The notes beneath the pieces were generated by a model that was not told where the DNA came from, did no database searches, and saw only the letters and a list, made by a program, of their open reading frames with translations. Of a stretch of DNA of 64,000 nt, positions 1-62,782 are shown piece after piece; the stretch's first letter is position 1; each line of letters begins with the position of its first letter. Both the position numbers and the translations under genes were made by a program. Source of the DNA: Deltaproteobacteria bacterium SG8_13 (GTDB taxonomy: Bacteria > Desulfobacterota > Desulfobacteria > Desulfobacterales > SG8-13); assembly GCA_001303025.1 (NCBI GenBank), contig LJNK01000004.1, forward strand, positions 1,516 through 65,515, in the 5' to 3' direction.

Positions 1-1232
1 GGGGCAAGATCATCTTTCTTGTCGGCGACGGTACCCCGGTTGCCAAAGGGGATGTCGTGGTCAGGCTCGACCCGGCACCCTTCGAAGAGGAGGTCCGGCG
101 ACTGGAAAGCGATGTCCAGGCACTGGAGGCGGCTGTGGAAGCCAACGGGCAGATGCTCGAATGGGAAAAAAGTCAGGTGGAGCGTGAAATCCGAAACGCC
201 GAATACAACCTGCAGGTTGCCGTGCTCGATCTGAAACGGTTGCGGGAAGGTGACGGCCCGTTGAAGCTGGCCGGCTTGAAGTCTGAAATGACCAAGCTGG
301 AGGAAGAATACCGGCGCTACTTGTCTTATATCCGCGATCTGGAAGAGCTGTCGCAGAAAGGGTTCGGCAATGAGCGGGAAATTTCCACCGCCCGGGAGAA
401 GTGCGCCGAGCTGAAAGAGCAGTTCGGCGCTGCGGAGCAAAATTTTTCATCCTACCGCAACCACGTTCTGCCCTCGCTGATCAAGACCGGCGAGGCCAAG
501 GTCCAGCAGGCCGAGATGGAGCTCGGCCAGTTGAAAAAAGGCGGGGTGTTCCGAATCGCAAAGGCCAAAGCGAGCTACGACGAGGTTGGCGGCAAGCTCA
601 AGACCGTAAAAGCGTATCTGGCCGCGGCACGCCTGGAGCTGGAAAAAACCATCATCCGGGCGCCGTCGGACGGCATCGCCATCCATTTTGAAGCCTATCG
701 CGAGGGCAGCAAACGCAAACCCCGGGAAGGCGACTCGGTGCTGCCCAACCAGCCGCTGGTGTACCTGCCGGACATCTCTTCGATGGTAGTCAAAACCCAG
801 GTGCGCGAAATCGACCTGCACAAAATTGTCGTCGGTCAAAATTGTCGGGTGCAGGTGGACGCCTATCCCGAATCGGTGTTTGCCGGTGAAATCTCTTTTG
901 TGGGCGCGCTGGCATCCGAGTTTCAGCGGCTCGGCCGGGGCGAGAAGTATTTCGAATTGACCATCGCCTTGAAGGATCAAAACGATCGGCTGCGGCCGGG
1001 CATGACCGCACGGGTCACGATACTCTCTGCCACTGTGAAGGAGCAGCTGGTTATCCCGGTTCAAGCCGTCTTCCAGGAGGGCGGGGCCACTTACTGCTAC
1101 CGGCACAGCGGAGCTGGATTTGAAAAAGTCGGCGTGATCACCGGAAGGCAAAACGAGGATCTGGTGGTCATCCGCTCCGGGCTGAATCCGGGTGATCGGA
1201 TCAGCCTGGTGAAACCGGATATGGACGGGTAG
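1..1232 (+). CDS. HlyD/MacA-family periplasmic adaptor subunit, 5' end cut by window edge
   Basis: The frame of ORF 57..1232 stays open back to nt 3 (GKIIFLVGDGTPVAKGDVVVRLD, a typical adaptor lipoyl-hairpin motif). It has a long coiled-coil segment and a C-terminal beta-barrel region. An ABC ATPase and FtsX-type permease follow directly. Confidence 0.8.
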   Translation, partial: GKIIFLVGDGTPVAKGDVVVRLDPAPFEEEVRRLESDVQALEAAVEANGQMLEWEKSQVEREIRNAEYNLQVAVLDLKRLREGDGPLKLAGLKSEMTKLEEEYRRYLSYIRDLEELSQKGFGNEREISTAREKCAELKEQFGAAEQNFSSYRNHVLPSLIKTGEAKVQQAEMELGQLKKGGVFRIAKAKASYDEVGGKLKTVKAYLAAARLELEKTIIRAPSDGIAIHFEAYREGSKRKPREGDSVLPNQPLVYLPDISSMVVKTQVREIDLHKIVVGQNCRVQVDAYPESVFAGEISFVGALASEFQRLGRGEKYFELTIALKDQNDRLRPGMTARVTILSATVKEQLVIPVQAVFQEGGATYCYRHSGAGFEKVGVITGRQNEDLVVIRSGLNPGDRISLVKPDMDG

Positions 1233-1233
1233 C

Positions 1234-1905
1234 ATGCCACCGCACCTGGTTGAAATGACTGCTATAACCAAGTCGTATACCGTCGGATACGGCAGGCTGC
1301 CGGTGTTGCGAAAAGTCAATCTGACGATACGGCAGGGCGAGTTCGTTGCGGTCATGGGTCCTTCCGGTTCGGGCAAGTCGACAATGCTGCACATCCTCGG
1401 TTGCCTCGACCGGCCCGATTCCGGCAGCTATCTGCTGGACGGACGGGACATCTTGGCGGCCACCGATTCCGAGCTGTCGCAAACCAGGGCACGGCGGATC
1501 GGTTTTGTCTTCCAGACCTTCAACCTGATTCACAACCTCTCCGTGAAGGAAAACGTCGAGCTGCCGTTTCTTTATCATGCCGCGCAAAACGGCGACGGCG
1601 AAACCCGGATCCTTTCGGCCATCGAACAGGTGGGGCTCGCCGGCCGGATCGCACACAAACCCTACCAGCTATCGGGCGGCGAGATGCAGCGTGCAGCCAT
1701 CGCCAGGGCCATTGCCACAGATCCCCGGTTACTCCTGGCAGATGAGCCCACGGGCAATCTCGATTCGAGCACCGGGCGCGAAATTCTTGATCTGTTTGAA
1801 ACCCTTAATGATGCCGGCGCCACCATCGTTATGGTAACCCACAACCAGGATGTTGCGGGCCGTGCCGGCCGAGTGATGACGCTAAATGACGGCAGATTTG
1901 CATAA
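1234..1905 (+). CDS. ABC transporter ATP-binding protein, MacB/LolD type
   Basis: Walker A GPSGSGKST, signature LSGGEMQR, Walker B LLLADEPT. The ATG lies 1 nt after the adaptor stop codon. Confidence 0.9.
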   Translation: MPPHLVEMTAITKSYTVGYGRLPVLRKVNLTIRQGEFVAVMGPSGSGKSTMLHILGCLDRPDSGSYLLDGRDILAATDSELSQTRARRIGFVFQTFNLIHNLSVKENVELPFLYHAAQNGDGETRILSAIEQVGLAGRIAHKPYQLSGGEMQRAAIARAIATDPRLLLADEPTGNLDSSTGREILDLFETLNDAGATIVMVTHNQDVAGRAGRVMTLNDGRFA

Positions 1906-3157
1906 TCGCCTTTACCGGCTGTACGGCATATTTCGTACGGCGGCTCGCGCGCTGATGGACCACAAGCTGCGCTCGGCCTTGAGCGTGGTGGGAATCGTGT
2001 GCGGGGTGATGGCCGTATTGTCGATGATATCGATCGGCGAAGGTGCCCGCGAACAGGCCCTGCGCCAGATCGAGCAGCTGGGGACCCGCAACATCTATCT
2101 GAAACCGATCCGGCTGACAGGCGAGCAAGCATACCGGGCCCGCAGGAAACTTTCTCCCGGGCTGCGCGCCGATGATGCGGCCATGCTCAAAAGAAACTGT
2201 GAGCTGCTGTCACAGGCAGCCTGTTTGAAGGAGTTTTCGGCTTCCATCTCTGGAACCGGCCGGCAGATTACCCCTCAGTTTGTCGCCTGTTCGGCGAATC
2301 TGGCCGAAATACAGGATCTTGCGATCCACCGTGGCCGGTTCATCCGCAATGGCGATGTCGACAGAAAAAACAAGGTCTGTGTGCTCGGCAGCGCTGTCGC
2401 TGCAAGCCTGGGGCCGAATATGCGGATCGGCAGTGACCTGAGAATCGAAGATCACCTTTTCAAGATCGTCGGCGCACTCAAACGCCGCGAGGATCGGGCA
2501 AAAAAAACTTCGGCGGTCTCTGCAAGAAATGTCAACGAGATGGTTTTCGTTCCCCTGGGTGTTGAACGCATCATCGCCCAAACCCCACACGGGCAAGCGC
2601 CCCCGCCATCCGAAGTGACGGAGATCATACTGCAGGTAGAGGACACCGATCAGGTGGCCGAAGCCGCGCGGATCGTGCAACGGCTGATGGAAGTTGCGCA
2701 TCACGGCGTGCAGGATTTCCAGATGGTGGTTCCGCGGGAGCTGTTGAAACAATCGGAGAAAACCAGACGGATGTTCAACACCATTCTCGGGGCCATAGCC
2801 GGAATTTCTCTGCTGGTGGGCGGTATCGGGATCATGAACATCATGCTGGCAACCGTTTCGGAGAGAACGCGCGAGATCGGCATCCGGCGGGCGGTCGGTG
2901 CCACCCGCACTCACATCGTCCTGCAGTTTCTGGCCGAGTCGATCATTTTGACGGCCGCGGGCGGCGTTGCCGGCATTGCCGCCGGCGTCGGAGCCGTCTG
3001 GCTGATCACGACCGTGGCCGGCTGGCAAACGGTCGTAACCGTCGTTGCGGTCTGTCTGCCGCTGCTGATGTCCATACTGGTAGGGATTTTCTTCGGGCTG
3101 TATCCGGCCTGCCGGGCGGCATCCATGAATCCGATCGCCGCCCTGCGCCACGAATAA
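1886..3157 (+). CDS. ABC transporter permease, FtsX/MacB family
   Basis: N-terminal TM helix, large periplasmic domain and a C-terminal 3-TM FtsX-like region (EIGIRRAVGA motif). Overlaps the ATPase gene by 20 nt. Confidence 0.85.
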   Translation: MTADLHNRLYRLYGIFRTAARALMDHKLRSALSVVGIVCGVMAVLSMISIGEGAREQALRQIEQLGTRNIYLKPIRLTGEQAYRARRKLSPGLRADDAAMLKRNCELLSQAACLKEFSASISGTGRQITPQFVACSANLAEIQDLAIHRGRFIRNGDVDRKNKVCVLGSAVAASLGPNMRIGSDLRIEDHLFKIVGALKRREDRAKKTSAVSARNVNEMVFVPLGVERIIAQTPHGQAPPPSEVTEIILQVEDTDQVAEAARIVQRLMEVAHHGVQDFQMVVPRELLKQSEKTRRMFNTILGAIAGISLLVGGIGIMNIMLATVSERTREIGIRRAVGATRTHIVLQFLAESIILTAAGGVAGIAAGVGAVWLITTVAGWQTVVTVVAVCLPLLMSILVGIFFGLYPACRAASMNPIAALRHE

Positions 3158-3240: not shown

Positions 3241-3483
3241 TCAGCCGACGATCCGCAAAGACAGATATGGAACCAGGTTGAAGAGCAAAATCGCCATTTT
3301 AAAGAACGCAATCCCGGCATAGTGGATGGCATCGAATTTTTCCACCGGTATGTGAAACCACTTGCTGTGCATCCGGTATGTCCAATCATGCGCAAAGAAA
3401 AAAAATACCGCCCACCAGGCCAGCAATATGATGTTGATGAGCGAACACCAGGCCAATGTGCTACGTACGACTTCCAACGTCAT
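3241..3483 (-). CDS. small integral membrane protein, unknown function
   Basis: Internal start MTLEVVRST is preceded by AAAGGAG. Two or three hydrophobic helices. The longer ORF (to 3582) has an Arg-rich, unlikely N-terminal extension. Confidence 0.45.
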   Translation of the reverse strand: MTLEVVRSTLAWCSLINIILLAWWAVFFFFAHDWTYRMHSKWFHIPVEKFDAIHYAGIAFFKMAILLFNLVPYLSLRIVG

Positions 3484-3631: not shown

Positions 3632-4789
3632 TCATGTCGGACCGCAGTTGTCCGGGGGGTTGCCAGAAGGCGGTAAATCCGTCAGCGTCGATCGCGAAGA
3701 TGCTTTGCGGTATTTGAAGACCCTTCGCTGCAACGCGCTTGCCTTGTGAAACAACGGCTTGACGGACAGGCCCAGCAACACAGCGGCTGCGGCCAGCTCC
3801 AGCCAGGCCGGCATGCTTTCGGCTGCCTGGCCAATGGAGGCCCGGGCGGAAACACCTGCCAATGCATACACCTGGTCGACCAGCAGGCCGAATGCAACCG
3901 CCGAACCGGCTATGACCGTCAGGTAGATCCCGGTGGCGCGCTTGCCCAACACACCGCTCAAGACTGTCAGCGATGCCACGTTGGTTGCCGGTCCTGCCAG
4001 CAAAAACACCAGCGCAGCCCCCGGGCTGACGCCTTTTAAAATCAGGGCCGCTGCAATCGGAGTGGAAGCGGTGGCGCAGATGTAAAGCGGAATCCCCACC
4101 GCCAACATCAGCAGCATGGCCGGCAGGCCGCTTCCCAGGTGGCGGCTGAAGATGTCGTCGGGAATCAGCGCCGTTATGACACCGGCAATCATCAGACCGA
4201 CGAAAAACCAGCCGGCCAGATCGTCCCAGAATTCCGTGAAAGCGTATCGCAGCCCTACGTATGTTTTTTCTGACACCGAGTGATGCAGCCGGTGCTGCCT
4301 CGGGTCGCAGCTTACGCCGTCACAGCAACCATCCACAGGGCAGGAGAGGTCTGGAATGACTTCGTCGGCATCCTTTTTCGTGTCGAAAATCGTTTCGGCA
4401 ATGCCGGCCGAAGCAGCCGTGAAGAATGCGGCAACGGGTCGGGCGATCGTCATGATTGGATCGAGCAGGGCGTAGGTGATAAAAATCGAGTCGACACCGG
4501 ATTCCGGCGTGGAAATCAGAAAGGATGTGACCGCCCCCTTGCCGGCCCCTTGTTTCCGCAGCGACACGGCTGCAGGCAGCACCCCGCAGGATCACAACGG
4601 AATGGGAATGCCGAGCAGCGCGGCCTTGAACACCGATGAAAAACGGCCGCCTCCCAGGTGTCGCGCGACCGCATGCGGATGCAGAAAGGCGCGCAGCAGG
4701 CCGCTGATCAGCAGTCCGAAGAGAATATAGATCGAAGATTCCAGCAGCAGCTGCCAGGAAGCCGATATGGAGTCAAAGACGAGGTTCAT
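3632..4789 (-). CDS. DUF318 / ArsP / SO_0444-type metal(loid) efflux permease, read through an in-frame TGA at 4592-4594 (candidate selenocysteine; otherwise a pseudogene)
   Basis: ORFs 4592..4861 and 3632..4582 are in the same frame and separated only by the TGA. Read-through gives GIPIPL-[TGA]-SCGVLPAAVSLRKQGAGKGAVTSFLISTPESGVDSI plus a Cys/His-rich loop (SCPVDGCCDGVSCDPRQHRLHH). The probable start MNLVFDS at 4789 follows GGAAGGG. Confidence 0.6.
4556..4575 (-). promoter_or_regulatory. candidate SECIS-like hairpin downstream of the in-frame TGA
   Basis: The mRNA reads CUGCAGC-CGUGUC-GCUGCGG: a 7-bp stem with a 6-nt G/U-containing loop. The stem begins 19 nt after the U of the UGA. Confidence 0.35.
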
Positions 4790-4903
4790 GGGCCCTTCCG
4801 ATATCAGGGTATAAATTAAGACGTCGGCTGGAAAACGCAACAAAAAAGGGGGCGCCTTCAATCAAGCGACCCCTTTTGTTTTCAGCAGTGATGCGGGTTT
4901 CGG

Positions 4904-6067
4904 CTACGCTCTGGTTTCCTCCTTGACGGACACGGCAATTTTATAAAGAGCCGAAAGCACCAGGAACCCAACACACCAGACCGCCAAGGAGATGATCAGC
5001 TCCGGCACGGACGGTATGTACTCGCTGACCTCGTGCAGGGGGTTGGGAACAAATCCACCGGAGATCATTCCCATTCCCTTGTCGATCCACGTTCCGGCAA
5101 ATATCACGACACAGGCCACGGCCAGAACCCCTTCATTTTTGCGGGTAAGCGGGTTTACCAGCAGGATGATTCCCAGCACCATCAGCGCAAGGGAGGTCCA
5201 CATCCAGGGCACATAGGCCCCGTGTCCGTGCAGCCCGACAAACAGGTATTTGAAGTGATCCATGTGCTCGGGGATCTGGCTGTAAAAGACGGTGAAAATT
5301 TCGCACAGAAAGAAGAACACGTTCAGGCAGATGGCGTAGGCCACGGTTTTTGCCAAGGTCTGGATCGCTTCGCGCCCGGGATCGAAGTTGGTCGTCTTGC
5401 GGATGAACAAACACAGCAGAATCAACAGGGCCGGACCGGAAGCAAACGCCGAAGACAGAAACCGCGGTGCCAGGATGGCCGTAAGCCAGAAGCCTCTGCC
5501 CGGCAGGCCGGCGTACAGGTATGCGGTCACGGTGTGGATGCTGATCGCCCAGGGGATGGAAAGATAGATAAAGGGCTTGACCCAGGCCTGGTAGTGAACA
5601 CCGTTGCGCTCGGCCTCCAGAACGTTCCAGCCGACGATAATGTTCAAAAACAGGTATCCGTTGAGAACGATCATATCCCAGAAGAGCACGGAGTTCGGCG
5701 TGGGATACAACGGAACGTTGAACAATCGCATTGGCTGACCAAGATCGACGATGATAAACAGCAGGCACATCACCACGGCCGCAATGGCCAGAAACTCTCC
5801 GAGAATCGTCACCCGGCCGTAGACCTTGTAATCGTGCAGGTAGTAGGGCAGCACCACCATGACGCCTCCGGCAGCCACTCCGACCAGAAAGGTAAACTGG
5901 GCGATGTAAAACCCCCATGAAACATCGCGGCTCATCCCGGTGATCCCGAGGCCGAAATCCAGCTGCTTCAGGTAGAAAAGAAAACCCACCCCGATGATGC
6001 CCAGCAGCAGCAGCATCCAGCCATAGTATTTTTTACTTCCTCTGATCGCTAATTCAAGCATAGTCAC
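4904..6067 (-). CDS. dsrP: DsrP, NrfD/PsrC-family integral membrane quinone-interacting subunit
   Basis: About 10 TM helices of the NrfD type. It is the last gene of the M-K-J-O-P order, 1 nt after the dsrO stop. Confidence 0.85.
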   Translation of the reverse strand: MTMLELAIRGSKKYYGWMLLLLGIIGVGFLFYLKQLDFGLGITGMSRDVSWGFYIAQFTFLVGVAAGGVMVVLPYYLHDYKVYGRVTILGEFLAIAAVVMCLLFIIVDLGQPMRLFNVPLYPTPNSVLFWDMIVLNGYLFLNIIVGWNVLEAERNGVHYQAWVKPFIYLSIPWAISIHTVTAYLYAGLPGRGFWLTAILAPRFLSSAFASGPALLILLCLFIRKTTNFDPGREAIQTLAKTVAYAICLNVFFFLCEIFTVFYSQIPEHMDHFKYLFVGLHGHGAYVPWMWTSLALMVLGIILLVNPLTRKNEGVLAVACVVIFAGTWIDKGMGMISGGFVPNPLHEVSEYIPSVPELIISLAVWCVGFLVLSALYKIAVSVKEETRA

Positions 6068-6068
6068 C

Positions 6069-6866
6069 TCACACGATATAGTAAATCGCCGGCTCCGTCC
6101 CCAGAGACTGCTTGCGGCGGATGGTGTAATTGGTTTTGATCAGTTCTCTCACCTTCGATTCGGGGTCGTAGAGATCACCGAAAGTAATTTTGTCCTCGGA
6201 TGCTTCCACACAGGCCGGCTGCTGACCGACGGCCAGACGTTCGGCGCAAAAGTTGCATTTCTCCACAACACCCTTTGCGCGGGTGGGAAACTGCTTGTTG
6301 GTCTCGGCGATAAACGGTCGCGGGTCACGGAAGTTGAAGCTGCGGGCCCCGAAGGGGCAGGCGGCCATACAGAACCGGCAGCCGATGCAGCGGTGGAAGT
6401 CCATCAGTACGATTCCATCGCTTTCGCGTTTGAAGGTCGCCTGGGTCGGGCAGGCTCTGCAGCAGGGCGGATTTTCGCAGTGGTTGCACAAAACCAGGAT
6501 CGGCCGGTGCTGCAAATCTTCTGCCATGAACCGGGCGCCTTTCATCGGAAAGGCATGTTTGTACTCGGTTTCCCAAATCCATTTGATTTCGTGCCGCTTT
6601 ACCGGCAGATGCGGAACGTTGTGGATTTTGTGGCAAGCTTCGATCAACGGCTCCACGTCCTCCAGAGAGTGAAACTCGCGGGTGTCAATGACCATGGCCC
6701 ACTGCCGGGCCTTGAGGGCATCCGGGCCGGACTGGGTGTGCTCATTCGCTTCAGCATCCCCGGCCGCCTGACCGGCGGCAAAGGCATCGAGTACCGGCTT
6801 GGTGCTCATCGCCAGCGCCGAAATACCGAAAAATTTCAGAATCTGTCTTCGACTGCTATCCATCAC
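6069..6866 (-). CDS. dsrO: DsrO, periplasmic 4Fe-4S ferredoxin-like subunit with Tat signal
   Basis: Twin-arginine signal SRRQILKF. Several CxxCxxCxxxCP-type cluster motifs (CNHCENPPCCRACP, CIGCRFCMAACP, CNFCAERL). Confidence 0.85.
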   Translation of the reverse strand: MMDSSRRQILKFFGISALAMSTKPVLDAFAAGQAAGDAEANEHTQSGPDALKARQWAMVIDTREFHSLEDVEPLIEACHKIHNVPHLPVKRHEIKWIWETEYKHAFPMKGARFMAEDLQHRPILVLCNHCENPPCCRACPTQATFKRESDGIVLMDFHRCIGCRFCMAACPFGARSFNFRDPRPFIAETNKQFPTRAKGVVEKCNFCAERLAVGQQPACVEASEDKITFGDLYDPESKVRELIKTNYTIRRKQSLGTEPAIYYIV

Positions 6867-7252
6867 TTGCTCTCCTTCGGGTTATCAATGTGACAATCCC
6901 AGCAATATGGCCGCACCGATGCGTAATCGTGGCACCGGTCGCAGAATTCGGCTTTGTTCGAGTGGCAATCCAGGCAGGTGTTGGAAAGACTCATGTTGAA
7001 CTCTTTTCCCTGGGGGTTGACGTACACCCGTTCACCGCTGCGGACAACAGTGTGCCGCCACAGATCCAGAATCTTCATATGTTCCCGCTGCATGTAGTCC
7101 TTGGACCGCACGCACTGCTGGGCAGCCTTGGCTGTCTCGGTCAGCACCAGCTCGGGGACCGGCGCCGCCTTTCCCCTGTTGTAAAGAAAGGGGAAGGTCA
7201 CGACAGCGAGAAAGATAATGATTCCGATTATGACACCTTTACTTTTCTTCAT
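6863..7252 (-). CDS. dsrJ: DsrJ, membrane-anchored triheme cytochrome c
   Basis: N-terminal anchor helix and three CxxCH motifs (CLDCH, CDRCH, CWDCH). Confidence 0.85.
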   Translation of the reverse strand: MKKSKGVIIGIIIFLAVVTFPFLYNRGKAAPVPELVLTETAKAAQQCVRSKDYMQREHMKILDLWRHTVVRSGERVYVNPQGKEFNMSLSNTCLDCHSNKAEFCDRCHDYASVRPYCWDCHIDNPKESK

Positions 7253-8897
7253 CAGTTTCGTCCTCCGTATCTTCCGCGGTGCCCTGCAGGTCGGCCAGCT
7301 CCTCGCTTCGCAGGTTCATGGTTCTGTCACTCTGGCCCGGCAGGTTCAAGGCATTGCCCACCAGTTCATGGACCCCGGTGACATCTACATCCGGTACCCA
7401 GTAAGACATCAGGTCCGGCAGCACCGCCCGGTCGATGGCACACACGCAGGCCAGCATGTTCACCCCGTGTTTGTCGTGCACATGCTTTACGGCATTGGCC
7501 CGGGGCAACCCCCCGGCCATTCTCAATTCCATGTCTTCGCCGGCATTGAGGCCCGAACCGCTGCCGCAGCAAAAGGTTTGTTCGCGGATGGCGTTGGCCG
7601 GCATGTCGTAAAAGTGCTTGCAGGTTTGTTTGATCACGTAGCGGGGCTCGTCAAATAGCCCCATTCCCCGGGCCGGGTTGCACGAATCGTGGAAGGTAAC
7701 CTTGAGGTGATCGTTGCGGCTGGGGTCCAGGTCGAGTTTGCCGTGTTTGATCAGGTCGGCCGTAAATTCGGTGATGTGCACCATCTTGGTGGAAGCAGCA
7801 TTTTTGAATGCCGTGCCGGTAATGGGATTGACCGGCATCTGCAGGAAATCGGCCGGGCCGTTCATGGTATCCATGTACTGGTGAATCACCCGCCACATGT
7901 GACCGCACTCTCCACCGAGAATCCACTTGACACCCAGGCGCCGGGCTTCGGCATACATCTTGGCATTCAACCGTTTCATGGTTTCATGGGACGTGAAAAG
8001 ACCGAAATTGCCGCCCTCGGACGCATAGGTACTCCAGGTAACGTCCAGGCCGTATTTTTCCTGCAAAAAATGAAACAGCATCAAATACCCCATGGCGGTG
8101 AAGGTGCCTGGATCGGCGAATACGTCACCGGAAGGGGTAACAAACAAGATGTCTGCGCCTTTTTTGTTGAACTGCGGGTCGGGACGGATGCCGGTAATCT
8201 CCTCGATATCGTCACAGAAAAAATCGAGCATGTCCTTGAAGGCATGAGGCTGGATGCCGAGGTGGTTGCCGGTCCGATAGCAGTTGGCCACCGGTGTAAT
8301 GATCCAGTCGATGTTCAAACCGAGCAGGTTGAGCAACTCGCGACCCATTATCGTAATTTCGGCGGTATCGATTCCGTAGGGGCAATAAAGCGAACACCGA
8401 CGGCATTCCGAGCACTGAAACAGATACGACCACCACTCTTTGAGAACCTCGTAGTTCATCGGACGCGCACCGTTGATTTTCCCCAGCAGTTTGCCCACCC
8501 GGGTAAAATCATTGCGATAGACCGAACGCAGCAGCTCTGCCCTGAGAACCGGCATGTTCTTCGGATCCCCGGTTCCGATGAAATAGTGGCATTTGTCCGC
8601 ACAGGCGCCGCAGCGGACACAGATGTCCATAAACACCTTAAAAGACCGGAATTTTTCCAATCGTTCCTTGAAGCCCTCATGGATAATTTCCTGCCAGTTT
8701 TCCGGCAGCTGCCAGTCGTCGTCGAAGCAGCTCCAGGTCCGCGGATTCGGAAATCCGAGCACTTCAAGGCTCTTTGGATTGCCGGCATAACAGGCGATGC
8801 CTTTGCGGATTTCTGCCGGAACATCCATCCAATCGGTGGATGGCGGGCGATACTTCAAACCGGAAAGCATTTCTTCTGCAGTTGGAAGATCAGACAT
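7239..8897 (-). CDS. dsrK: DsrK, HdrD-like Fe-S / CCG-domain catalytic subunit
   Basis: Cluster motifs CVRCGACADKC and CSECRRCSLYCP, plus a CCG-domain motif FCCGSGSG. Confidence 0.85.
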   Translation of the reverse strand: MSDLPTAEEMLSGLKYRPPSTDWMDVPAEIRKGIACYAGNPKSLEVLGFPNPRTWSCFDDDWQLPENWQEIIHEGFKERLEKFRSFKVFMDICVRCGACADKCHYFIGTGDPKNMPVLRAELLRSVYRNDFTRVGKLLGKINGARPMNYEVLKEWWSYLFQCSECRRCSLYCPYGIDTAEITIMGRELLNLLGLNIDWIITPVANCYRTGNHLGIQPHAFKDMLDFFCDDIEEITGIRPDPQFNKKGADILFVTPSGDVFADPGTFTAMGYLMLFHFLQEKYGLDVTWSTYASEGGNFGLFTSHETMKRLNAKMYAEARRLGVKWILGGECGHMWRVIHQYMDTMNGPADFLQMPVNPITGTAFKNAASTKMVHITEFTADLIKHGKLDLDPSRNDHLKVTFHDSCNPARGMGLFDEPRYVIKQTCKHFYDMPANAIREQTFCCGSGSGLNAGEDMELRMAGGLPRANAVKHVHDKHGVNMLACVCAIDRAVLPDLMSYWVPDVDVTGVHELVGNALNLPGQSDRTMNLRSEELADLQGTAEDTEDETDEEK

Positions 8898-8900
8898 GTG

Positions 8901-10034
8901 TTACTCCTTTTCCTCTGGTTCAGCCGCGGCATCTGCTGCGTCTGCTGGCGGCTCTTGCGGCGGAGCGGCAGGTTCTTCCTCTTCTTCGGCGGCTGCCTCC
9001 TGGGGCTCCGGCATCTTGTCCACCGGCAGGCCGGCTTCGATCATCTTGTCTCTGAAATCATCTTCGTATTCTTCGTAGGTATGCACTTTCACAGGGTAGT
9101 TCCATGGATTTACATGGCGTACCGCCCGGGTATCCGCCCTCATGTTGCGGGTGGGGCTGAAAAAGATGCCGCCCAAATGCATCAGCTTGCTAAACGGGAA
9201 ATATGCCAGCAGGATGCTGACAAAAAAGAGGTGAACAAAGAAAATGCTGCTCACGTTTTGCGGAATGTTCGGGCGAAATGTCACCAGGCCCATGGCAAGC
9301 TGTTTTGCGGCCGTCACGTCGATTTTGAGCACGTACCGCATCATGATTCCGGTGAAAGCGATCCCGAAAATCAAAAAAAGCGGGAAGTAATCTGAAGCCA
9401 GGGATATATAATTTACGTTGCGAATGAAAATTCTTCTCAGAAAAAGGTAGGTCACGGCTGCCAGCAGGACCAGGCCGGAAAGGTAAACCCCCGGAACACC
9501 GATTTGAATGAAGTCCTGCAAAATTTCCATCCGGAAAAAGCTGTCAAGGTCTTCCACCAGCCGCACCGGCAACGGAATCGGATCGGTGAAAAATCGCAGG
9601 TGCCGGAACAGCACCGTAAAAAAAGCATAATGGAAAGCAAGCGCTCCCACCCACAGGAAAATTTCCAGTTGGTAGGAAATTTTGCCTTCCCTCAGCTTCA
9701 TCCGCGAATTTCTGAAAAGGGACCGAAAGGTAACGATTTCCAGCAGCATGCGAACGAAAACCGCGCCCTTCGAACTTGGATTGTCGATAGCGTTCGGCTT
9801 GATCCAGCTCAACGTTTTCTGCTGGCCTCCTGTTGTGGGGATGGCAAACGGCACCGCTGATCGTGACCAGGTGAGCAGTCGCCGGATGAAACCGGCGACA
9901 AAAACGATCAAAGCGGCATAGGGAATGACAATACCGAATAGCCATTTGGAGCCCGGCACTGCTTCCACTCCCAGATAGGAGATGAGAAACAAAACGATAA
10001 CCGCAATGAGGGACAATAAGTACCTTTTATTCAT
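8901..10034 (-). CDS. dsrM: DsrM, NarI-like dihaem b membrane subunit with acidic C-terminal tail
   Basis: Polytopic NarI-like membrane protein upstream of dsrK. The start MNKRYLL at 10034 follows GAGGAG at 7 nt. The C-terminus is EPQEAAAEEEEEPAAPPQEPPADAADAAAEPEEKE. Confidence 0.8.
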   Translation of the reverse strand: MNKRYLLSLIAVIVLFLISYLGVEAVPGSKWLFGIVIPYAALIVFVAGFIRRLLTWSRSAVPFAIPTTGGQQKTLSWIKPNAIDNPSSKGAVFVRMLLEIVTFRSLFRNSRMKLREGKISYQLEIFLWVGALAFHYAFFTVLFRHLRFFTDPIPLPVRLVEDLDSFFRMEILQDFIQIGVPGVYLSGLVLLAAVTYLFLRRIFIRNVNYISLASDYFPLFLIFGIAFTGIMMRYVLKIDVTAAKQLAMGLVTFRPNIPQNVSSIFFVHLFFVSILLAYFPFSKLMHLGGIFFSPTRNMRADTRAVRHVNPWNYPVKVHTYEEYEDDFRDKMIEAGLPVDKMPEPQEAAAEEEEEPAAPPQEPPADAADAAAEPEEKE

Positions 10035-10112: not shown

Positions 10113-10793
10113 TTAGAGACCCGGGACGTCTTCCGATGTCTCGACGATTAAACCCGCACGCTTGAATGCCTTGTATACTTTGCTTCGTTCGACATTGGAC
10201 TTCAGGTCGTATATTTTTTCACGGCATTCCATATAGATGTCAAACGCATATAGGCTCAATGAGTCGATCTTCGATTCAAAGGCAAACAGCGACTGCACCG
10301 TGCGGATGTCGCTGAGTTCTTTTTTCAGATGGTCTCTGATGACGGTTTTCAAGATGAGAATAAAGGCGGTGGCCTGGGAAGGGGTGAAATCTTGAACGGC
10401 CCGAATCCGGACGATCGGGTCCAGGTATGTTTTGACAGTCTCTTTGTCCGGCCCGGCAAGCAGCTGGTCGAACAAGCCGGCCAGCCCAACGCTGAGGCTC
10501 TGGCCGACGGGGTTGGAGATGGGGTCCTGAACGCTCTTCAGAAACTGTGCGGTATCCGGGGCATATGTTCGGGACACCCTTTCGAACCAATCCTTGACAA
10601 TGGCATCCTTTTTCTTCGCTAACTGTTTTTCAAGCCCCATCTCGGATCGCTTCCCGCTTGCCAGCTGTCCGGGGGAATGATTGGTTGCTGTAACCAGCTG
10701 AAATTCTACGAAATAGATGCTTTCAGCCGACCCCAGACGGTCAGTTGACTTAAAGAGAAGCCTATAATCAACTTCCAAAATCATGTCAAGCAT
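10113..10793 (-). CDS. hypothetical protein, RsbRD_N-like helical domain; start uncertain (possibly 10640)
   Basis: The segment KDAIVKDWFERVSRTYAPDTAQFLKSVQDPISNPVG recalls the RsbRD N-terminal domain. Lies directly upstream of dsrM on the same strand. Confidence 0.4.
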   Translation of the reverse strand: MLDMILEVDYRLLFKSTDRLGSAESIYFVEFQLVTATNHSPGQLASGKRSEMGLEKQLAKKKDAIVKDWFERVSRTYAPDTAQFLKSVQDPISNPVGQSLSVGLAGLFDQLLAGPDKETVKTYLDPIVRIRAVQDFTPSQATAFILILKTVIRDHLKKELSDIRTVQSLFAFESKIDSLSLYAFDIYMECREKIYDLKSNVERSKVYKAFKRAGLIVETSEDVPGL

Positions 10794-11167: not shown

Positions 11168-11782
11168 ATGATGAAACGCGGGGTAAAAACGTTTTGCCGG
11201 ATACTGATTGCCGCCTTGATCGCCAGCGGCTGTGCTTCCGGTCCCAAGGTCGAGAGAAAGGAAGTCGATACCACCATCGATCTGAGTGGTCGATGGAACG
11301 ATACGGATTCGCGCCTGGTGTCGGAAGAGATGATCGATGACTGTCTCAAGCGTCCCTGGCTGAAGCGATATGAAGACCGTCACGCAGGCAAGCCGCCCAC
11401 GGTGACTGTGGGGCAGGTTAAAAACCGCAGTCATGAGCACATCAATGTGCAGACCTTCGTCAAGGATCTGGAAAGAGCCCTGATCAATTCCGGGCAGGTG
11501 CAGTTTGTCGCCTCCAAAGGTGAACGCGAAGGTGTCCGCGAAGAGCGGTTGGACATGGCACAGCACGCCACAGACGAAACGATGAAAGAAGCCGGTCGGG
11601 AAATCGGCGCCGATTTCATGCTGATCGGCACGATCAACACGATCCGGGACGATATCGGCAGCGAGGCGGTAATGTATTATCAGGTCGACCTGGAACTGAT
11701 CTCCATGGAAAACAACCTGAAAGTCTGGATCGGAGACAAAAAAATCAAAAAGCTGATTAAAAAACCGAAAGTAAAATGGTAG
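11168..11782 (+). CDS. LpoB-like (COG3417) outer-membrane lipoprotein
   Basis: Lipobox LIASGC, RBS AGGAGG, and a conserved core GKPPTVTVGQVKNRSHEHINVQTF...ADFMLIGTI typical of LpoB/YcfM. Confidence 0.7.
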   Translation: MMKRGVKTFCRILIAALIASGCASGPKVERKEVDTTIDLSGRWNDTDSRLVSEEMIDDCLKRPWLKRYEDRHAGKPPTVTVGQVKNRSHEHINVQTFVKDLERALINSGQVQFVASKGEREGVREERLDMAQHATDETMKEAGREIGADFMLIGTINTIRDDIGSEAVMYYQVDLELISMENNLKVWIGDKKIKKLIKKPKVKW

Positions 11783-13170
11783 CTGCTGCGCCCTTTCGTG
11801 CTGTGGACCGATCGGCATGGACCGCCTCCACAGCCTTCATATGCCTTCACGGACTGATTGCATTCTGGATCTGGGGCTGCGGTCCCAAGATGGACCACTA
11901 CCAGCAGTTGGACCAGCATGTGTACCACCATCAATACGATGCGGCCCTGCAATTGATGCAGGCAAGCCGGGAAGGATATCAGGGGCGCAATGAAGCCCTG
12001 TTTTACATGGAGGAAGGCCTGCTGGCGCACTTTGCCGGCCGCTATAGGGAAAGCATTGACAGCCTGCTGAAAGCCGAGTCGATCCTCGATGAGCTCTACA
12101 CCCGCTCCATTTCGAAACAGGCCGCCTCTTTTGTGTTCAACGACAACACGATTCCCTACCGCGGAGAGGACTTCGAGGATGCCATGGTCAACCTCTACCT
12201 GGCATTGAACTTTGCCGCTCTGGGAGCCACCGAAGATGCGCTGGTGGAGGCCCGGCAGGTGGACAACGAATTGAACCTGATCAACTCTCGATACGATGAA
12301 GACCAGAAGAACGTATACCGTGAAGACGCCTTCATCCGGTTTTTGATGGGGGTGCTCTACGAATCGGGCAAAGAGATCAACGATGCGTTCATTTCTTACC
12401 GAAAATCGGAGGAAATCTATCGCAATGACTATGCCACTCACTATCGCGTCAGCGCACCGCGATTTCTGATCGAAAATCTGTTGGCCAGTGCCAGCGCACT
12501 CGGCTTTGACGCCGAAATAAAGCAGATTCGCCAACGCTATCCAGATGTCGAATTCCCGCGGCTCGAAGAAAAAAACGATCGTGCAGAAATCTTCATCATT
12601 CACTACAACGGCATCGGACCGAGCAAGATGGAACGGCAATGGCTCATTCCCATGCCTGACGGGTACATGGCCAGCATCGCGTATCCGGTTTTCGAGGAAA
12701 AGCCCTACCGGATTTCCAGCGGTATCGTCCATTTGCAGAACGTGGACGGCAACCGCCGGTTTGGGGGTCAGACGGAATTGATGGAAGACATCGGCTTTAT
12801 CGCGGTGCAAAATCTGGAAAACCGTATAAGCCGGATCAAGGCAAAGGCCATCACTCGCGCCACCAGCAAGTATATGGCCACCAAGGCGGCATCCAAGGCA
12901 GCCAATGACCAGGCCGGAGAACTGGCCGGTTTGCTGGTTCAGGTTGCCGGCAACATCGCTGCGGCAGCCACCGAACGAGCCGATGTTCGTCACTGGCGCA
13001 TGCTGCCAGATGAAATCAGGGTAGCCCGGATGCTGATTCCACCGGGCCTGTACGACGGGCAGATCGATTTCGTCGACGCCACCGGCAAGATCGTTCAGTC
13101 GACAACCCTGTCTGCCTTTGCAGTCAGCAGTGGTGAAAAAAAGTTTCTCTTCCAGCGGACGATGCAATAA
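11776..13170 (+). CDS. COG3014-like helical-repeat lipoprotein
   Basis: Lipobox-like WIWGC. TPR-like helical N-terminal half. 7-nt overlap with the lpoB-like gene. LpoB/COG3014 pairing is recalled from other Proteobacteria. Confidence 0.5.
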   Translation: MVAAAPFRAVDRSAWTASTAFICLHGLIAFWIWGCGPKMDHYQQLDQHVYHHQYDAALQLMQASREGYQGRNEALFYMEEGLLAHFAGRYRESIDSLLKAESILDELYTRSISKQAASFVFNDNTIPYRGEDFEDAMVNLYLALNFAALGATEDALVEARQVDNELNLINSRYDEDQKNVYREDAFIRFLMGVLYESGKEINDAFISYRKSEEIYRNDYATHYRVSAPRFLIENLLASASALGFDAEIKQIRQRYPDVEFPRLEEKNDRAEIFIIHYNGIGPSKMERQWLIPMPDGYMASIAYPVFEEKPYRISSGIVHLQNVDGNRRFGGQTELMEDIGFIAVQNLENRISRIKAKAITRATSKYMATKAASKAANDQAGELAGLLVQVAGNIAAAATERADVRHWRMLPDEIRVARMLIPPGLYDGQIDFVDATGKIVQSTTLSAFAVSSGEKKFLFQRTMQ

Positions 13171-13329
13171 GGCGATGGCTACCCGAACCGATGCCGGTTG
13201 TCATGCGCCTCGTAATCTGAAAAAACCATTTATCCGCGGAGGTCAAGAGAACGCCGGTTGGACCCTACGCGCTGCAGGTCGGCGCAGTCGCCGGCATTGT
13301 TTTCGAAAGACCCGGAAAAGGTGACACCC

Positions 13330-14556
13330 GTGCAGCACTATCGCAGCTTTATCCATTGCCTCTCCATCCTGGCGGCCGCAGCCCTTCTGTCTTGGTCGGG
13401 TTGCGCCGGCAAAGCGTCGCAACCGGTCCCCGAGGACGACATCCGCTCCCGCTCCGATCGCGCATTTGACGACCTGCAGGCGCAGGAGCAGGGGCGCCCC
13501 GCGGAGCCCGATTCGGCCCGGACACCGCCTCCCAGCGCCCCCCCTGCGCCTGGTTCCACCGTGGCCGAGGAGGCGGTACCAATTGACACCGGTGGCACGC
13601 CCGCGTGGATTGACGGACAAAGCAGACAATTCCCACCCGGCAGGTACCTCACCGGGGTCGGCTATGGAAACGAACGGCCGGCGGCGGAAGACAAAGCCAG
13701 GGCCGAAATCGCCAAAATATTTACCAGTCATATCGACTCGAGCAACCGCACCTACCAGGAGATTTTCGAAAGCCGCACCGGCGGCAAGTCCCGCAGCGCC
13801 GAAAGCATTAACTTCGAGGAGATCACCCGTGTGTCGACCCAGAAGGTGCTGTCCGGCGTTCGCATCGGCCGGGTGTACCGGGATCCATCCGCTTCCCCCG
13901 AATATTACGCCCTGGCGGTTCTCGATCGAATCCAGGCCGCAGAAATCCTTCGTAGCAGGATCGTGGAACTCGACCGGCAGATCGAGCAACTGTTAAGCGA
14001 CAGTCGCAATCAGACCGACAAGCTCACCCGGATCAAATTGATGCGGAGCTGCATCGAGCAGCATGCGCTGCGACAGGCATATAACGCCGAGTTGCGAATC
14101 GTAGAGCGCAGCGGAAGGGGGATACCCCCCCCGGTCAACATTGCCGAAATTAAAACCCAGTTCGCCGGTGCGCTGCTGAAAGATTTCCTGATAGCCCTGT
14201 CGGTGCAAGGTTCGCGGGCGGACGAGGTGCGCCGCGCTCTGGTGGAAGCGCTCAACAGCAAGGGTTTTTCCGTCTCCGAACAAATCAGCAGTGCCAGTGT
14301 TTTGGCCAGAGGCCGGGTTGAAATCAAACCGATTCCCCAGAGTGACGCCGATTGGAAATTCGTGCGCTGGAGTGCCTATTTCGATCTGGTCGATCAAAAT
14401 GGTGGTGCGGTTTTCGGCAGTGTACATAAATCCGGCAAGTCCGGTCACCTGACCACCGCCCAGGCCGAAGATCGGGCGGTGAGAAGCATCCGCCAGAGCC
14501 TGGCAGCGGAAATATCCGAGGATTTGAGCAATTATATCTTACGCCAGAGCCGTTAG
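13330..14556 (+). CDS. LPP20/FlgP-like domain lipoprotein with Pro/Ala-rich linker
   Basis: GTG at 13330 follows AAGGTG. Lipobox LSWSGC. LPP20-type motif YLTGVGYGNERPAAEDKARAEIAKIF, and a second similar helix near the C-terminus (AQAEDRAVRSIRQSLAAEI). Confidence 0.6.
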   Translation: MQHYRSFIHCLSILAAAALLSWSGCAGKASQPVPEDDIRSRSDRAFDDLQAQEQGRPAEPDSARTPPPSAPPAPGSTVAEEAVPIDTGGTPAWIDGQSRQFPPGRYLTGVGYGNERPAAEDKARAEIAKIFTSHIDSSNRTYQEIFESRTGGKSRSAESINFEEITRVSTQKVLSGVRIGRVYRDPSASPEYYALAVLDRIQAAEILRSRIVELDRQIEQLLSDSRNQTDKLTRIKLMRSCIEQHALRQAYNAELRIVERSGRGIPPPVNIAEIKTQFAGALLKDFLIALSVQGSRADEVRRALVEALNSKGFSVSEQISSASVLARGRVEIKPIPQSDADWKFVRWSAYFDLVDQNGGAVFGSVHKSGKSGHLTTAQAEDRAVRSIRQSLAAEISEDLSNYILRQSR

Positions 14557-14597
14557 CCGCTGCATGTGCGGCCCGGAATGAAAGGAGGTGAAATGCA

Positions 14598-15779
14598 GTG
14601 AAGAAGAAAATGCTAACTGCATGGATTGCCGGTATGCAGGTTATCTGCCTGACCGTGGGCCTGTCCGTTGCACCGGCAGCAACACCGAAGGAGATCTACC
14701 AGCAAGCCGGTCCGGCTGTCGTGTTCATCCTGGCGGCTGATAATTCGCAAACCGGCAGCGTGGGAACCGGCTCCATAATTCGCAATGACGGACTGGTGAT
14801 CACAAATGCCCATGTCTTTATTAAACCTGGTACAACACGGCTGAAAAAAGACGTGTCGGTGTATTTGAAGCCACGCAGAGTCACCGGCAATCACAAGACC
14901 GATTTGTCGAACCGATACCGGGGCAGAATCCTGGCGTACGACATCCCCCTGGACCTGGCCCTGCTGCAAATCGAGGGAGTAGACCGACCACTGAGTCGAA
15001 TTGAATTTGCCGACTCGACCGATGTGGTTGTCGGAGACCAGGTCTATGCCATCGGACATCCCGAACAGGGCGGCCTCTGGAGCCTGACGACGGGCGTCAT
15101 CAGTGCTTTTCGGCAGAATTACGGTGGTGTCCATGGGAAAAACCTGTTCCAGACCGATGCCAGCATCAACCGCGGAAATTCGGGCGGCCCATTGCTGGAC
15201 ACACAGGGGAACATGGTCGGCATCAATTCCCTGATCGCCAGAAAGGCTGCGGACGGCCTGACCATTACCGACGTAAACTATTCGATCATGTCCAGCGTGG
15301 CACTCAACTGGCTTGCAAGTATTGGATACCGCTTTGATACTTTTCGCACGGCCGCAGCCGCTCCGGCAGCACAGGGATCCGGCAGCCCCATGGACCAACA
15401 GCCGCTGAAAGCAGAACCGACACCGCAAACCGAACCTTCGCCGAACCCGCCCGAACAGCCTGTTGAGATTTTGCCAAAACCGTCAGAACCGGTTAAATCC
15501 GCTCCGGTTCCAGAATCCCCCCCGAAATTGGAAACCCCGCCGCCGCCGATAACACCGGAAAAGCAGCTGGATTCGCCTCCTGGGTCAGTACCGCAGCAAC
15601 CGACTCCTGAGATTTCGCCCCCGGCGGACAGGAAATCGAGCGAAGCACCTGGCGGTGGGAAAATTCTCACCCAGAAAAAGCCATACAAGATGAGCAAGCT
15701 TCTGCGGGAGATGCAGGAGATGGAAGATATGATGGAAGACATGAAAGGCAAAATACAGAGGTACAAAAAAAGCCAGTAA
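14598..15779 (+). CDS. secreted trypsin-like (S1C/HtrA-like, no PDZ) serine protease with Pro-rich tail
   Basis: Signal peptide. Catalytic triad contexts TNAHV, DLALL and GNSGGPL. The C-terminal 120 aa are Pro-rich (PSPNPPEQPVEILPKPSEPVKSAPVPESPP). Confidence 0.8.
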   Translation: MKKKMLTAWIAGMQVICLTVGLSVAPAATPKEIYQQAGPAVVFILAADNSQTGSVGTGSIIRNDGLVITNAHVFIKPGTTRLKKDVSVYLKPRRVTGNHKTDLSNRYRGRILAYDIPLDLALLQIEGVDRPLSRIEFADSTDVVVGDQVYAIGHPEQGGLWSLTTGVISAFRQNYGGVHGKNLFQTDASINRGNSGGPLLDTQGNMVGINSLIARKAADGLTITDVNYSIMSSVALNWLASIGYRFDTFRTAAAAPAAQGSGSPMDQQPLKAEPTPQTEPSPNPPEQPVEILPKPSEPVKSAPVPESPPKLETPPPPITPEKQLDSPPGSVPQQPTPEISPPADRKSSEAPGGGKILTQKKPYKMSKLLREMQEMEDMMEDMKGKIQRYKKSQ

Positions 15780-15795
15780 CAGCAAGGAGGAAATT

Positions 15796-16377
15796 ATGAA
15801 AGCAAAAAACTTGACGATTCTGGGGATCATGTTGTTGACAGCGGTCTTCATGGCCGTCGGATGTTCGTCGACGCCCGACACGGCCCCGAGCGCCGATACG
15901 GCCGCCCAAGGCCCTGAATGGGTAATGAAAGGAAGCGGTGCGTTCGATGTAGACGGAAGCAAGGTGTTTTACGGTGTCGGCGTGGCATCCGGAATTCGCA
16001 ACAAGGCGCTGCTGCGGGAAACATCCGACAACCGGGCCCGGGCGGAAATCGCCAAGACGATGGAAGTCTATGTCGCCAGCCTGAGCAAAGACTACATGGC
16101 TTCCACCACCGCCGGCGATATGTCCTCATCTTCGGAAGAACAACACGTGGAAAATGCCTTGAAAACATTTACCAAATCGACCCTGCACGGCGCCACCATC
16201 GTCGACCGCTGGATGGATCCGGCCGATGGCTCCATGTACTCTCTGTGTGAACTGGACCTGATCAGGTTCAAGGAAGCCCTGGATGACTACAAGGAGCTGG
16301 ATGCAAAGGTCAGGGATTACGTTCGCGAAAATGCAGATTCAATGCACGAAGAGCTGGAAGAAATGGAAAACCGATAG
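15796..16377 (+). CDS. LPP20-family lipoprotein
   Basis: RBS AAGGAGG, lipobox MAVGCS, motif FYGVGVASGIRNKALLRETSDNRARAEIAKTMEVYV. Confidence 0.7.
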   Translation: MKAKNLTILGIMLLTAVFMAVGCSSTPDTAPSADTAAQGPEWVMKGSGAFDVDGSKVFYGVGVASGIRNKALLRETSDNRARAEIAKTMEVYVASLSKDYMASTTAGDMSSSSEEQHVENALKTFTKSTLHGATIVDRWMDPADGSMYSLCELDLIRFKEALDDYKELDAKVRDYVRENADSMHEELEEMENR

Positions 16378-16482
16378 CCCGAATATTACCAACAGAATGG
16401 TACTCTCCGGTCAATATCATTGCGAAAGCGGCGACGGGCAATCGTCGCCGCTTTTTGCCCTTTGAACTGCAGCGTTGACGCG

Positions 16483-17427
16483 TTATGGACCGGAAATCGT
16501 CCGGATGAACTCTTCTGAAAGCTCGACCTCCATCTCGACCCTGACCGAACCGTCCGGCAGTTGCTCCCGGCTTACCACCCGCGCACCCTGAAGAGTGGTG
16601 TTTAGCTGCATGCGGATGCTGTCGTTCTGGGTCATCATCTGCTCGATGGTGGTGTCGGCAGCAACATGGGTACCCTTGATTTCTTCCACCAGGTTGCGCA
16701 TGGCATCGCCCTTGGCAGCCCGGAAGGCCATGCTTTTCGCCTGGGCGGGGTTCTGGAATTTGGCGGACGGAAAGCCGATCCCTTCGGCTCTGAATACCCG
16801 GGTCTGAATTTTCGGTTTGTTCAGATGGGGAATCTCGTCATCATACAGCGATATCCAATCGCTTCTTTTATCCAATTCGGCATCGGCGGAGCTCAACAGG
16901 CTGCCGGAAGTCACATCGATGACCCGAGTGCTCAGGTAAAAAACGCTCCCGAGATCCGAAAGTTTTCCGGTGACAATGGCCTCGGCACCTAAAATTTTAC
17001 CGAATTCGGCGGCACTGCTTTCATCGGCAAACGGTGACAGCTGAAATTTCTGCTCGGCAATCACCCGGTCGATGAGATCCCTTTCCAGAACGGAAAACCG
17101 GCCCGATCGTACCAACCCGGATATCAACTTGTCCGTGACCACTCGCCCGAGCCGCGTTATCTTCCCCTGATCGGTCACAAAATCCGCCACCGCCATCACG
17201 GCCGGCTTATCGGCAGTGATCGCACGGGTTTTGGTGAGATCGCCGACCACGGAGGCCGTCAAATAATTCACCGTCTCGTTCAATTCTGAAAATCGGGGCG
17301 TTTCAAATGCACCACCGGCGGCCTGGGATTGTCCCGCCGGCTGTTTCTTTAACGCCGCCGGCTTGGATGCACAGCCGATCAGGCCGATTATGGCCAAAAG
17401 AATGCATGCAGCGCTGAGGCTTTTCAC
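16483..17427 (-). CDS. lipoprotein with FlgO/LpoB-like N-terminal domain and LPP20/FlgP-like C-terminal domain
   Basis: GTG at 17427 follows AAGGAGAA. Lipobox LIGCAS. N-domain AVADFVTDQG...SVLERDLIDRVIAEQKFQ...AIVTGKL. C-domain AQAKSMAFRAAKGDAMRNLVEEIKG. Confidence 0.6.
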   Translation of the reverse strand: MKSLSAACILLAIIGLIGCASKPAALKKQPAGQSQAAGGAFETPRFSELNETVNYLTASVVGDLTKTRAITADKPAVMAVADFVTDQGKITRLGRVVTDKLISGLVRSGRFSVLERDLIDRVIAEQKFQLSPFADESSAAEFGKILGAEAIVTGKLSDLGSVFYLSTRVIDVTSGSLLSSADAELDKRSDWISLYDDEIPHLNKPKIQTRVFRAEGIGFPSAKFQNPAQAKSMAFRAAKGDAMRNLVEEIKGTHVAADTTIEQMMTQNDSIRMQLNTTLQGARVVSREQLPDGSVRVEMEVELSEEFIRTISGP

Positions 17428-17574
17428 GTTATTCTCCTTGGGAAGGGTAAATGAATGAAGGCGATTATAGCAAAACGGGGAAATCAGCGTCAACAGCGCC
17501 TCCAAGGCAGGGAGTCACGCGGATGGCATAAACGTCTTTCCGCACGGCTGTAAAAATCCGTTGACCCGGTCGGT

Positions 17575-24546: not shown

Positions 24547-24566
24547 ACAGCAACGAAGCGGACAAG

Positions 24567-26507: not shown

Positions 26508-26565
26508 TGTTGGATGTTCGGCCGCCTGCAGCCGAACGGATTGCGCTCCTGGTGCAGCAGAATCA

Positions 26566-26985
26566 ATGAGAAAGCCTTATGAAATCATCGACCACACCGC
26601 TGATATCGGCCTTCACGTTTATGGTGCCGACGCGGCCGAGCTGTTCAGCAATGCCGCCAGCGCACTAACCGACGTGATCACCGATCATCGTGGCGTGGTT
26701 GCCGCCGAGTCGCTGAACCTTTCGGTCACCGGCCTCGACTGGCCGGATTTGATGGTCAACTGGCTCCGGGAGCTGCTCTACCTGTGGTCGGGTAAAGACC
26801 TGCTGGTCGCTTCCGTTGAGATTGAACAGGTCAGTGAGCAGAAAATCGTCGCCGTCGCATCGGTAGAACCCTTTCGATCCGAGCGACACAGGATTCACAA
26901 CGAGATCAAGGCGGTTACCTATCACCAGATCGACGTTTCCGAAAGTTTGACAGGCTGGGAAGCAAAGATCATATTGGATGTATGA
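26566..26985 (+). CDS. archease
   Basis: N-terminus MRKPYEIIDHTADIGLHVYG and C-terminal IKAVTYHQ are archease hallmarks. Overlaps rtcB by 4 nt. Confidence 0.8.
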   Translation: MRKPYEIIDHTADIGLHVYGADAAELFSNAASALTDVITDHRGVVAAESLNLSVTGLDWPDLMVNWLRELLYLWSGKDLLVASVEIEQVSEQKIVAVASVEPFRSERHRIHNEIKAVTYHQIDVSESLTGWEAKIILDV

Positions 26986-62779: not shown

Positions 62780-62782
62780 AAC

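Follow-up and report, generated by a model that had tools for sequence, protein, structure and literature searches.

The locus described here raises the question of whether a permease gene that is interrupted by a single in-frame TGA has been inactivated, has been split in two, or encodes a selenocysteine (Sec) residue. It is located on the minus strand of a 64-kb stretch of DNA, which was analysed as a whole and is referred to below as the window. Considering the sequence comparisons together, the locus very probably represents one functional gene that encodes Sec, its product being a permease in the SO_0444 Cu/Zn-efflux family and its UGA at codon 66 being recoded. The elements around which the argument is built are the following:

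3632-4789, minus strand: SO_0444-family permease gene of 385 codons with a putative Sec-UGA at codon 66 (translation; NF033936; PF03773)
4592-4594, minus strand: in-frame UGA, read as Sec (U66), where the CSC motif has its first Cys (TGA in 17 loci; Cys in 109/109 full-length homologs)
4586-4588, minus strand: TGC codon for Cys68, which provides the second thiol in U-S-C (C68 invariant in a 51-sequence alignment)

Gene structure and family membership

Translation of the window showed that the frame starts at an ATG (4789-4787), runs over 385 codons and ends at a true stop, TGA 3634-3632. The sole break is the TGA at 4594-4592, which constitutes codon 66. The original prediction that two ORFs in the same frame are parted by this one TGA was reproduced, as was the read-through: the mechanical ORF list contains two same-frame pieces (4592-4861 and 3632-4582, minus strand), and the stored gene calls on the same contig represent the permease locus by products of 65 and 311 amino acids. 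The translation across codon 66 reads ...FKAALLGIPIPL-*-SCGVLPAAVSLRKQGAGKGAVTSFLISTPESGVDSI..., that is ...LGIPIPL-*-SCGVLPAAVSLRKQGAGKGAVTSFLISTPESGVDSI..., so that the product around this codon is IPIPL-U-SCG when the TGA is read as Sec. A peptide across the recoded codon is thus predicted to read IPIPL-U-SCGVLPAAVSLR. TGA serves as the terminator of 19 of the 48 genes predicted in the window; a standard genetic code is therefore in use, without reassignment of this codon.

When U is treated as C, the product scores 420.6 bits with the NCBIfam equivalog NF033936 (SO_0444 family Cu/Zn efflux transporter), whose cutoff is 300; residues 11-344 cover model positions 1-349 of 351. The Pfam domain ArsP_1 (PF03773) was recovered at 4e-43 over residues 14-304, the stop again being read as Cys. 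The earlier assignment to an SO_0444-type family was therefore right, and can be placed within Pfam ArsP_1. The PLCSCG motif of the original prediction proved correct in an alignment of 51 sequences: C66-S67-C68 is invariant in the 50 homologs, and the window gene has U66-S67-C68.

Conservation of the in-frame TGA

A search among 5.8 billion proteins showed that the 11 closest proteins (78-100% identical) are all fragments of 299-319 amino acids that start just past the TGA position, and that the full-length matches (59-72% identical) have a Cys at residue 66 in 109 out of 109 cases. This corroborates the proposal that the stop sits at the first Cys of the permease motif. Additional loci were gathered from genome and metagenome collections and via look-ups of exact proteins. 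In this way, 17 distinct related loci with a TGA at precisely this codon were found; they are 56-88% identical and derive from independent metagenomes and MAGs, the latter labelled Desulfobacterales, Desulfoprunum or 'Deltaproteobacteria'. All 17 loci have around 65 open codons upstream of the TGA and around 319 downstream of it, and show no further lesion. In around 30 more distant loci the codon is TGT or TGC. The best match in a scan of GTDB genomes was 83% identical. The aligned column is thus either Cys or a TGA accompanied by a conserved hairpin (see below). What might have spoken against a Sec codon, namely TGC or TGT in the close relatives, or TGA-containing orthologs that are disrupted and lack a conserved structure, was not what the relatives revealed.

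The ratio dN/dS, determined against the relatives, amounted to 0.07-0.23 over the first 65 codons and to 0.13-0.22 over the remainder. Such low values on either side of the TGA indicate that the frame is translated before and after this codon, and with a frame that is open except at codon 66 they bear out the claim that both halves are intact. These data weigh directly on the most trivial explanation, a pseudogene or an assembly error, in which a mutation or a misreading turned a Cys codon (TGC/TGT) into TGA, with a dead permease as the outcome. The change from TGY to TGA takes only one step, the locus is called as two ORFs, and the window is without visible Sec machinery, all of which would fit. 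Nevertheless, the occurrence of the same TGA in the 17 loci, from independent assemblies and without any other damage, the strong purifying selection on both halves and the frozen synonymous sites of the downstream hairpin effectively refute this explanation, and we consider it extremely unlikely.

A second alternative is that the UGA acts as a true stop and that a peptide of 65 residues assembles with a separately initiated protein of around 316 residues, so that the first thiol is absent. Split membrane transporters do exist, and codon 70 is a GTG (4582), which the ORF-finder used as the start of the downstream 316-aa ORF. However, codon 70 is GTA or GTT, hence no start, in five relatives (L001, L005, L026, L050 and L051), which argues against a conserved internal start and consequently against a split gene. 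Moreover, the callers choose different starts in different relatives, the break coincides exactly with an invariant position that is a putative metal ligand, S67-C68 would be lost from both products, and the frozen codons of the hairpin would be left unexplained. A split gene is therefore very unlikely.

The inconsistent start choices are part of a wider annotation problem. The Sec permease is systematically mis-annotated throughout the public gene calls of close relatives, in the form of a separate 65-aa ORF and an N-terminally truncated permease of 299-319 amino acids (P0001, P0002, P0005, P0007, P0008, P0010, P0016, P0022, P0026, P0034 and P0038, including a call in the NCBI MAG GCA_975972305.1). 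Recognition of the Sec codon would restore both the full-length transporter and its putative key ligand.

A hairpin downstream of the UGA

The reading of the UGA as a Sec codon implies a signal in the mRNA, for which there is one candidate:

4556-4575, minus strand: SECIS-type hairpin CUGCAGC-CGUGUC-GCUGCGG (energy -10.2 kcal/mol; frozen synonymous sites; bSECIS constraints)

The hairpin is found where it had been predicted, at 4575-4556, with the stem CUGCAGC/GCUGCGG and a 6-nt loop. It is contained within the coding sequence, 17-36 nt downstream of the UGA: the stem begins 17 nt past the UGA, the invariant 5-bp core starts at +19, the distance given in the prediction, and the apical loop lies at 23 nt. 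The stem counts 7 bp, including one G-U pair, and the loop CGUGUC has GU at positions 2-3. The constraints for bacterial SECIS elements, as quoted in PMC13188914, comprise a stem of 4-16 bp, a loop of 3-9 nt, a G within the first two loop positions, a distance between UGA and loop of 16-37 nt and an energy of at most -7.5 kcal/mol. The hairpin of the window falls within all of these limits (7 bp, 6 nt, G at loop position 2, 23 nt, -10.2 kcal/mol), in agreement with the supposed compatibility with a bacterial SECIS.

The fold of region 4530-4600, which had been put forward as a check, lent no support, as the plain minimum free energy was no better than that of shuffled sequences (z = 0.03). Similarly, Rfam yielded no SECIS family or other relevant match, either at gathering thresholds over the whole window or in a permissive scan of 4480-4640. 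Given that the energy alone does not exceed chance in a GC-rich gene, the significance of the hairpin comes from comparative data. The core GCAGC-CGUGUC-GCUGC is invariant across 14 loci that belong to the main Sec clade. Within the codons GCA GCC GTG TCG CTG every third position is identical in these 14 loci, and the flanking codons vary freely. Because the sequence is invariant, no covariation was seen in the main hairpin, and as there was none to score, the suppression of synonymous variation was used instead. In nine full-length Sec genes, the codon was invariant in only 12 of the 124 conserved codon columns that are four-fold or more degenerate. Five of these 12 are the consecutive hairpin codons 73-77, which form the only such run in the gene (permutation P = 3.4e-4 for a run of at least five frozen synonymous codons). 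In the Cys-type homologs L003, L063 and L066 codons 73-77 vary and do not form such a hairpin. The best hairpins in Cys-type homologs of similar GC content are weaker (mean -6.8 versus -9.5 kcal/mol) and variably placed.

The insertion of Sec at a UGA, mediated by SelB and directed by a hairpin, is established bacterial biology. By analogy, the hairpin 17-36 nt downstream would recruit the complex of SelB, GTP and Sec-tRNA(Sec) to the ribosome at UGA66. Sec would then be inserted at residue 66, yielding a product with U66-S-C68 in place of C-S-C. Pfam scans and ARAGORN turned up no selA, selB, selD or tRNA-Sec within the 64 kb or the fetched loci, so that the decoding of Sec by the source organism is something we infer. 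Neither were other evident selenoproteins found in the window (Pfam scans of around 48 ORFs) or in the fetched loci; a list of all same-frame ORF pairs in the window that are parted by a TGA was too noisy for use.

The same lack of Sec machinery within the window and the fetched loci could be taken to favor a read-through of the UGA that does not involve selenium, by near-cognate insertion of Trp or Cys or by an alternative code. Low-level near-cognate read-through of UGA is indeed known in bacteria. Against this explanation, however, stand the standard code of the window, the fact that the aligned residue is always Cys, as in a classic Sec/Cys pair, the conservation of a position-fixed hairpin that obeys the bSECIS rules, and the presence of annotated Sec members in the SO_0444 family. 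We therefore judge selenium-free read-through to be highly improbable, and maintain that the UGA is very probably a Sec codon.

A second Sec lineage

Three of the loci with a Sec form represent a second lineage, in which the TGA is found at:

L002, position 5422: TGA at the permease codon
L027, position 3196: TGA at the permease codon
L028, position 1258: TGA at the permease codon

These loci possess a different hairpin, UGCUGCC-GGC-GGCAGCA, at the equivalent place, of which the loop starts 17 nt past the UGA. The hairpin of L002 contains one compensatory change, from C-G to U-A, and in L027 the stem extends to around 16 bp and begins right after the UGA. In a rough neighbor-joining tree, constructed with no support values, the second lineage was separated from the main Sec clade, and the Cys form P0021 was positioned beside the Sec form L026, inside the main Sec clade. 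The data hint at more than one switch between Sec and Cys within the SO_0444 family.

Genomic context

The window forms the end of a 236,656-nt metagenome contig in ENA. Within it, the immediate surroundings of the permease gene consist of:

4904-10034, minus strand: dsrMKJOP operon, immediately upstream of the permease gene (Pfam content of the called genes)
4853-4868, minus strand: terminator-like hairpin with T-run, between dsrP and the permease gene (consensus match; this class of element is not enriched over shuffles)
3241-3483, minus strand: small DUF6868 gene of 80 aa, immediately downstream of the permease gene (PF21742 at 1.5e-33)

The dsrMKJOP operon is complete, as concluded from DsrM (Nitrate_red_gam), DsrK (Fer4/CCG-type), DsrJ, DsrO (Fer4_11) and DsrP (NrfD). 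It is itself preceded by a gene with an RsbRD_N domain (10113-10793). Every relative of around 80% identity keeps the arrangement dsrMKJOP - permease - DUF6868, and the relatives that share this synteny are very close organisms, with DsrP sequences that are 90-98% identical. A DUF6868 gene follows the permease gene in L057, L058, L059, L060, L062, L024 and L004. More distant Sec forms lack the dsr synteny; in L001, on the 4.2-Mb Desulfobacterales MAG contig CAXXIG010000003.1, the gene is located directly behind a CsoR-type metal repressor (PF02583) and in L002 behind an ArsR-type regulator. The Cys forms are likewise found behind ArsR-type regulators. The presence of these regulators beside both the distant Sec forms and the Cys forms supports a role in metal efflux for the family. 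The association with dsr is, judging from its distribution, most likely lineage-specific. No metal-responsive regulator is adjacent to the permease gene of the window, its neighbors being dsrP and the DUF6868 gene; such a regulator is frequent beside SO_0444-family genes without strictly defining the family. The 64-kb window contains no ars genes and there are no SAO genes nearby.

Given the fixed synteny behind dsrMKJOP, the DUF6868 partner and the lack of an adjacent metal-sensing regulator, one could imagine that the Sec permease accompanies dissimilatory sulfite reduction as a constitutive partner and is not a stress-induced Cu/Zn pump. Its cargo might then be, for instance, a chalcophile metal, or else a species of sulfur or selenium that arises at the DsrMKJOP/DsrC step, and Sec might have been chosen for a chemistry beyond plain metal binding. 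As the support consists of a synteny that is restricted to one lineage, we consider such a partnership very unlikely, and keep to the reading as a Sec-containing member of a metal-efflux family.

Protein features and a putative metal site

Apart from the U-S-C motif, two elements of the protein stand out in the 51-sequence alignment:

4280-4342, minus strand: Cys/His-rich loop between the permease halves, C150-P-V-D-G-C-C-D-G-x-x-C...H166..H169-H170 (51-sequence alignment)
4076-4078, minus strand: Cys238 codon, pseudo-symmetric counterpart of U66 (invariance; helix break in the model)

Within the loop C150, D153, C155, C156, G158, C161, H166, H169 and H170 are invariant in the 51 sequences. 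The same is true for C238, which is part of the motif P-L-Y-I-C-A-T-A-S-T-P in the second half of the protein. Among solved structures no relative was identified, either by sequence or with Foldseek, whose best hit had an E-value of 0.066. As a structural proxy we used the AlphaFold model of P0004, a Cys homolog that is 72% identical (pLDDT 75.9, thus of medium confidence; pTM 0.75). In the model, residue 66 is situated at a break (61-66) between helices 51-60 and 67-79. A break at 236-238, between helices 222-235 and 239-251, mirrors that at 61-66 and contains C238. The segment that corresponds to the Cys/His-rich loop is non-helical. The model is compatible with an inverted-repeat transporter, in which two discontinuous helices would provide a site with soft ligands.

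On this basis, the pair formed by the U66 selenolate and the C68 thiolate, possibly together with C238, would most likely constitute a soft-metal site in the translocation path. Sec would make such a site bind thiophilic cations, for example Cu(I), Zn(II) or Cd(II), more tightly and react with them more readily. The Cys/His-rich loop is probably a cytoplasmic metal-binding loop that delivers the metal from the cytoplasm, the presumed direction of transport being outward.

Relation to described permeases

Selenoproteins of the SO_0444 family with a USC motif have been described before, for example WP_014809615.1 of Desulfomonile tiedjei, and the family is included in the reference set that the NCBI annotation pipeline employs to detect known selenoproteins (Haft & Gwadz 2022, bioRxiv 10.1101/2022.07.06.499078). 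In a 2026 review, the table of prokaryotic selenoproteins lists the 'SO_0444 family Cu/Zn efflux transporter, NF033936, UxC' (PMC13188914). Considering that USC forms of the family are thus on record, the finding of the window gene is a correct rediscovery. The window gene shares with the D. tiedjei protein the family NF033936, the (here predicted) exchange of the leading Cys in C-S-C for Sec and the kind of host, which is anaerobic and of the Desulfobacterota type, with dsrMKJOP next door in the case of the window. It concerns another organism and another sequence, the likeness being drawn here from the family description. In addition, the position behind dsrMKJOP is specific to the close clade of the window gene, and its relatives of 78-88% identity are annotated as fragments.

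The founding member, SO_0444 of Shewanella oneidensis MR-1, is a membrane permease that is needed under stress by ZnSO4 and CuCl2, as fitness and complementation data show (PMC3219624). It belongs to the same family and has its CSC at the equivalent position. However, SO_0444 is a Cys form that is co-transcribed with a ZntR-like regulator, whereas the window gene is predicted to encode Sec and has no regulator next to it.

Two other permeases were considered as possible identities and rejected. SaoE (NF040736) shares the CSC motif, but the match to this model was weak (176.3 bits, under the cutoff of 325 bits) and SAO genes were lacking nearby. The members of SaoE are never selenoproteins, and the CSC motif is common to related permeases (bioRxiv 10.1101/2022.07.06.499078).

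The other is ArsP in the strict sense, as exemplified by the organoarsenical efflux permease of Campylobacter jejuni, which belongs to the same Pfam superfamily (PF03773, ArsP_1) and to the TCDB ArsP family. Chen et al. reportedly found in 2015 that ArsP, too, relies on two cysteines that lie close together within a membrane helix. The window gene, however, is devoid of an ars operon context, with no ars genes in the window, and its best equivalog is SO_0444. Since it matches the SO_0444 equivalog and not ArsP proper, it probably transports a metal cation rather than methylarsenite, though this assignment is much less certain than the reading of the gene as Sec-encoding.

The small new details added here are the nucleotide-invariant hairpin with its frozen synonymous sites, the hairpin of the second lineage and the hint of repeated Sec/Cys switching; they leave the current understanding unchanged. 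The gene represents a well-supported case in which Sec would serve as a putative substrate-binding ligand in a membrane transporter and not as a redox catalytic residue, a use that is rare, yet was already recorded for the SO_0444 family.

Other features of the window

The 64 kb contain three gene sets for ABC systems of the MacB/FtsX type, all on the plus strand. In the first (57-3157), a membrane-fusion protein is encoded together with an ATPase and a MacB permease; the second (31198-35557) comprises an HlyD protein, an ATPase and two MacB-type permeases; and the third (53437-56494) has an OEP and FtsE/FtsX, after which M23 and S41 peptidases are encoded. A gene at 33.0-34.3 kb that was suspected to be broken turned out to be a normal FtsX-type permease of 401 amino acids. 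Two long ORFs on the minus strand, 24105-26285 (726 aa) and 61946-63925 (659 aa), have a coding-like GC3 and gave no Pfam match at E <= 1e-5. Finally, genes for an archease (26455-26985) and an RtcB RNA ligase (26982-28418) form a pair on the plus strand with overlapping stop and start, and region 11168-17505 harbors a predicted lipoprotein/envelope cluster, with an LpoB-like protein, three LPP20 proteins and a CsgG/FlgO-like protein, plus a trypsin-like protease.
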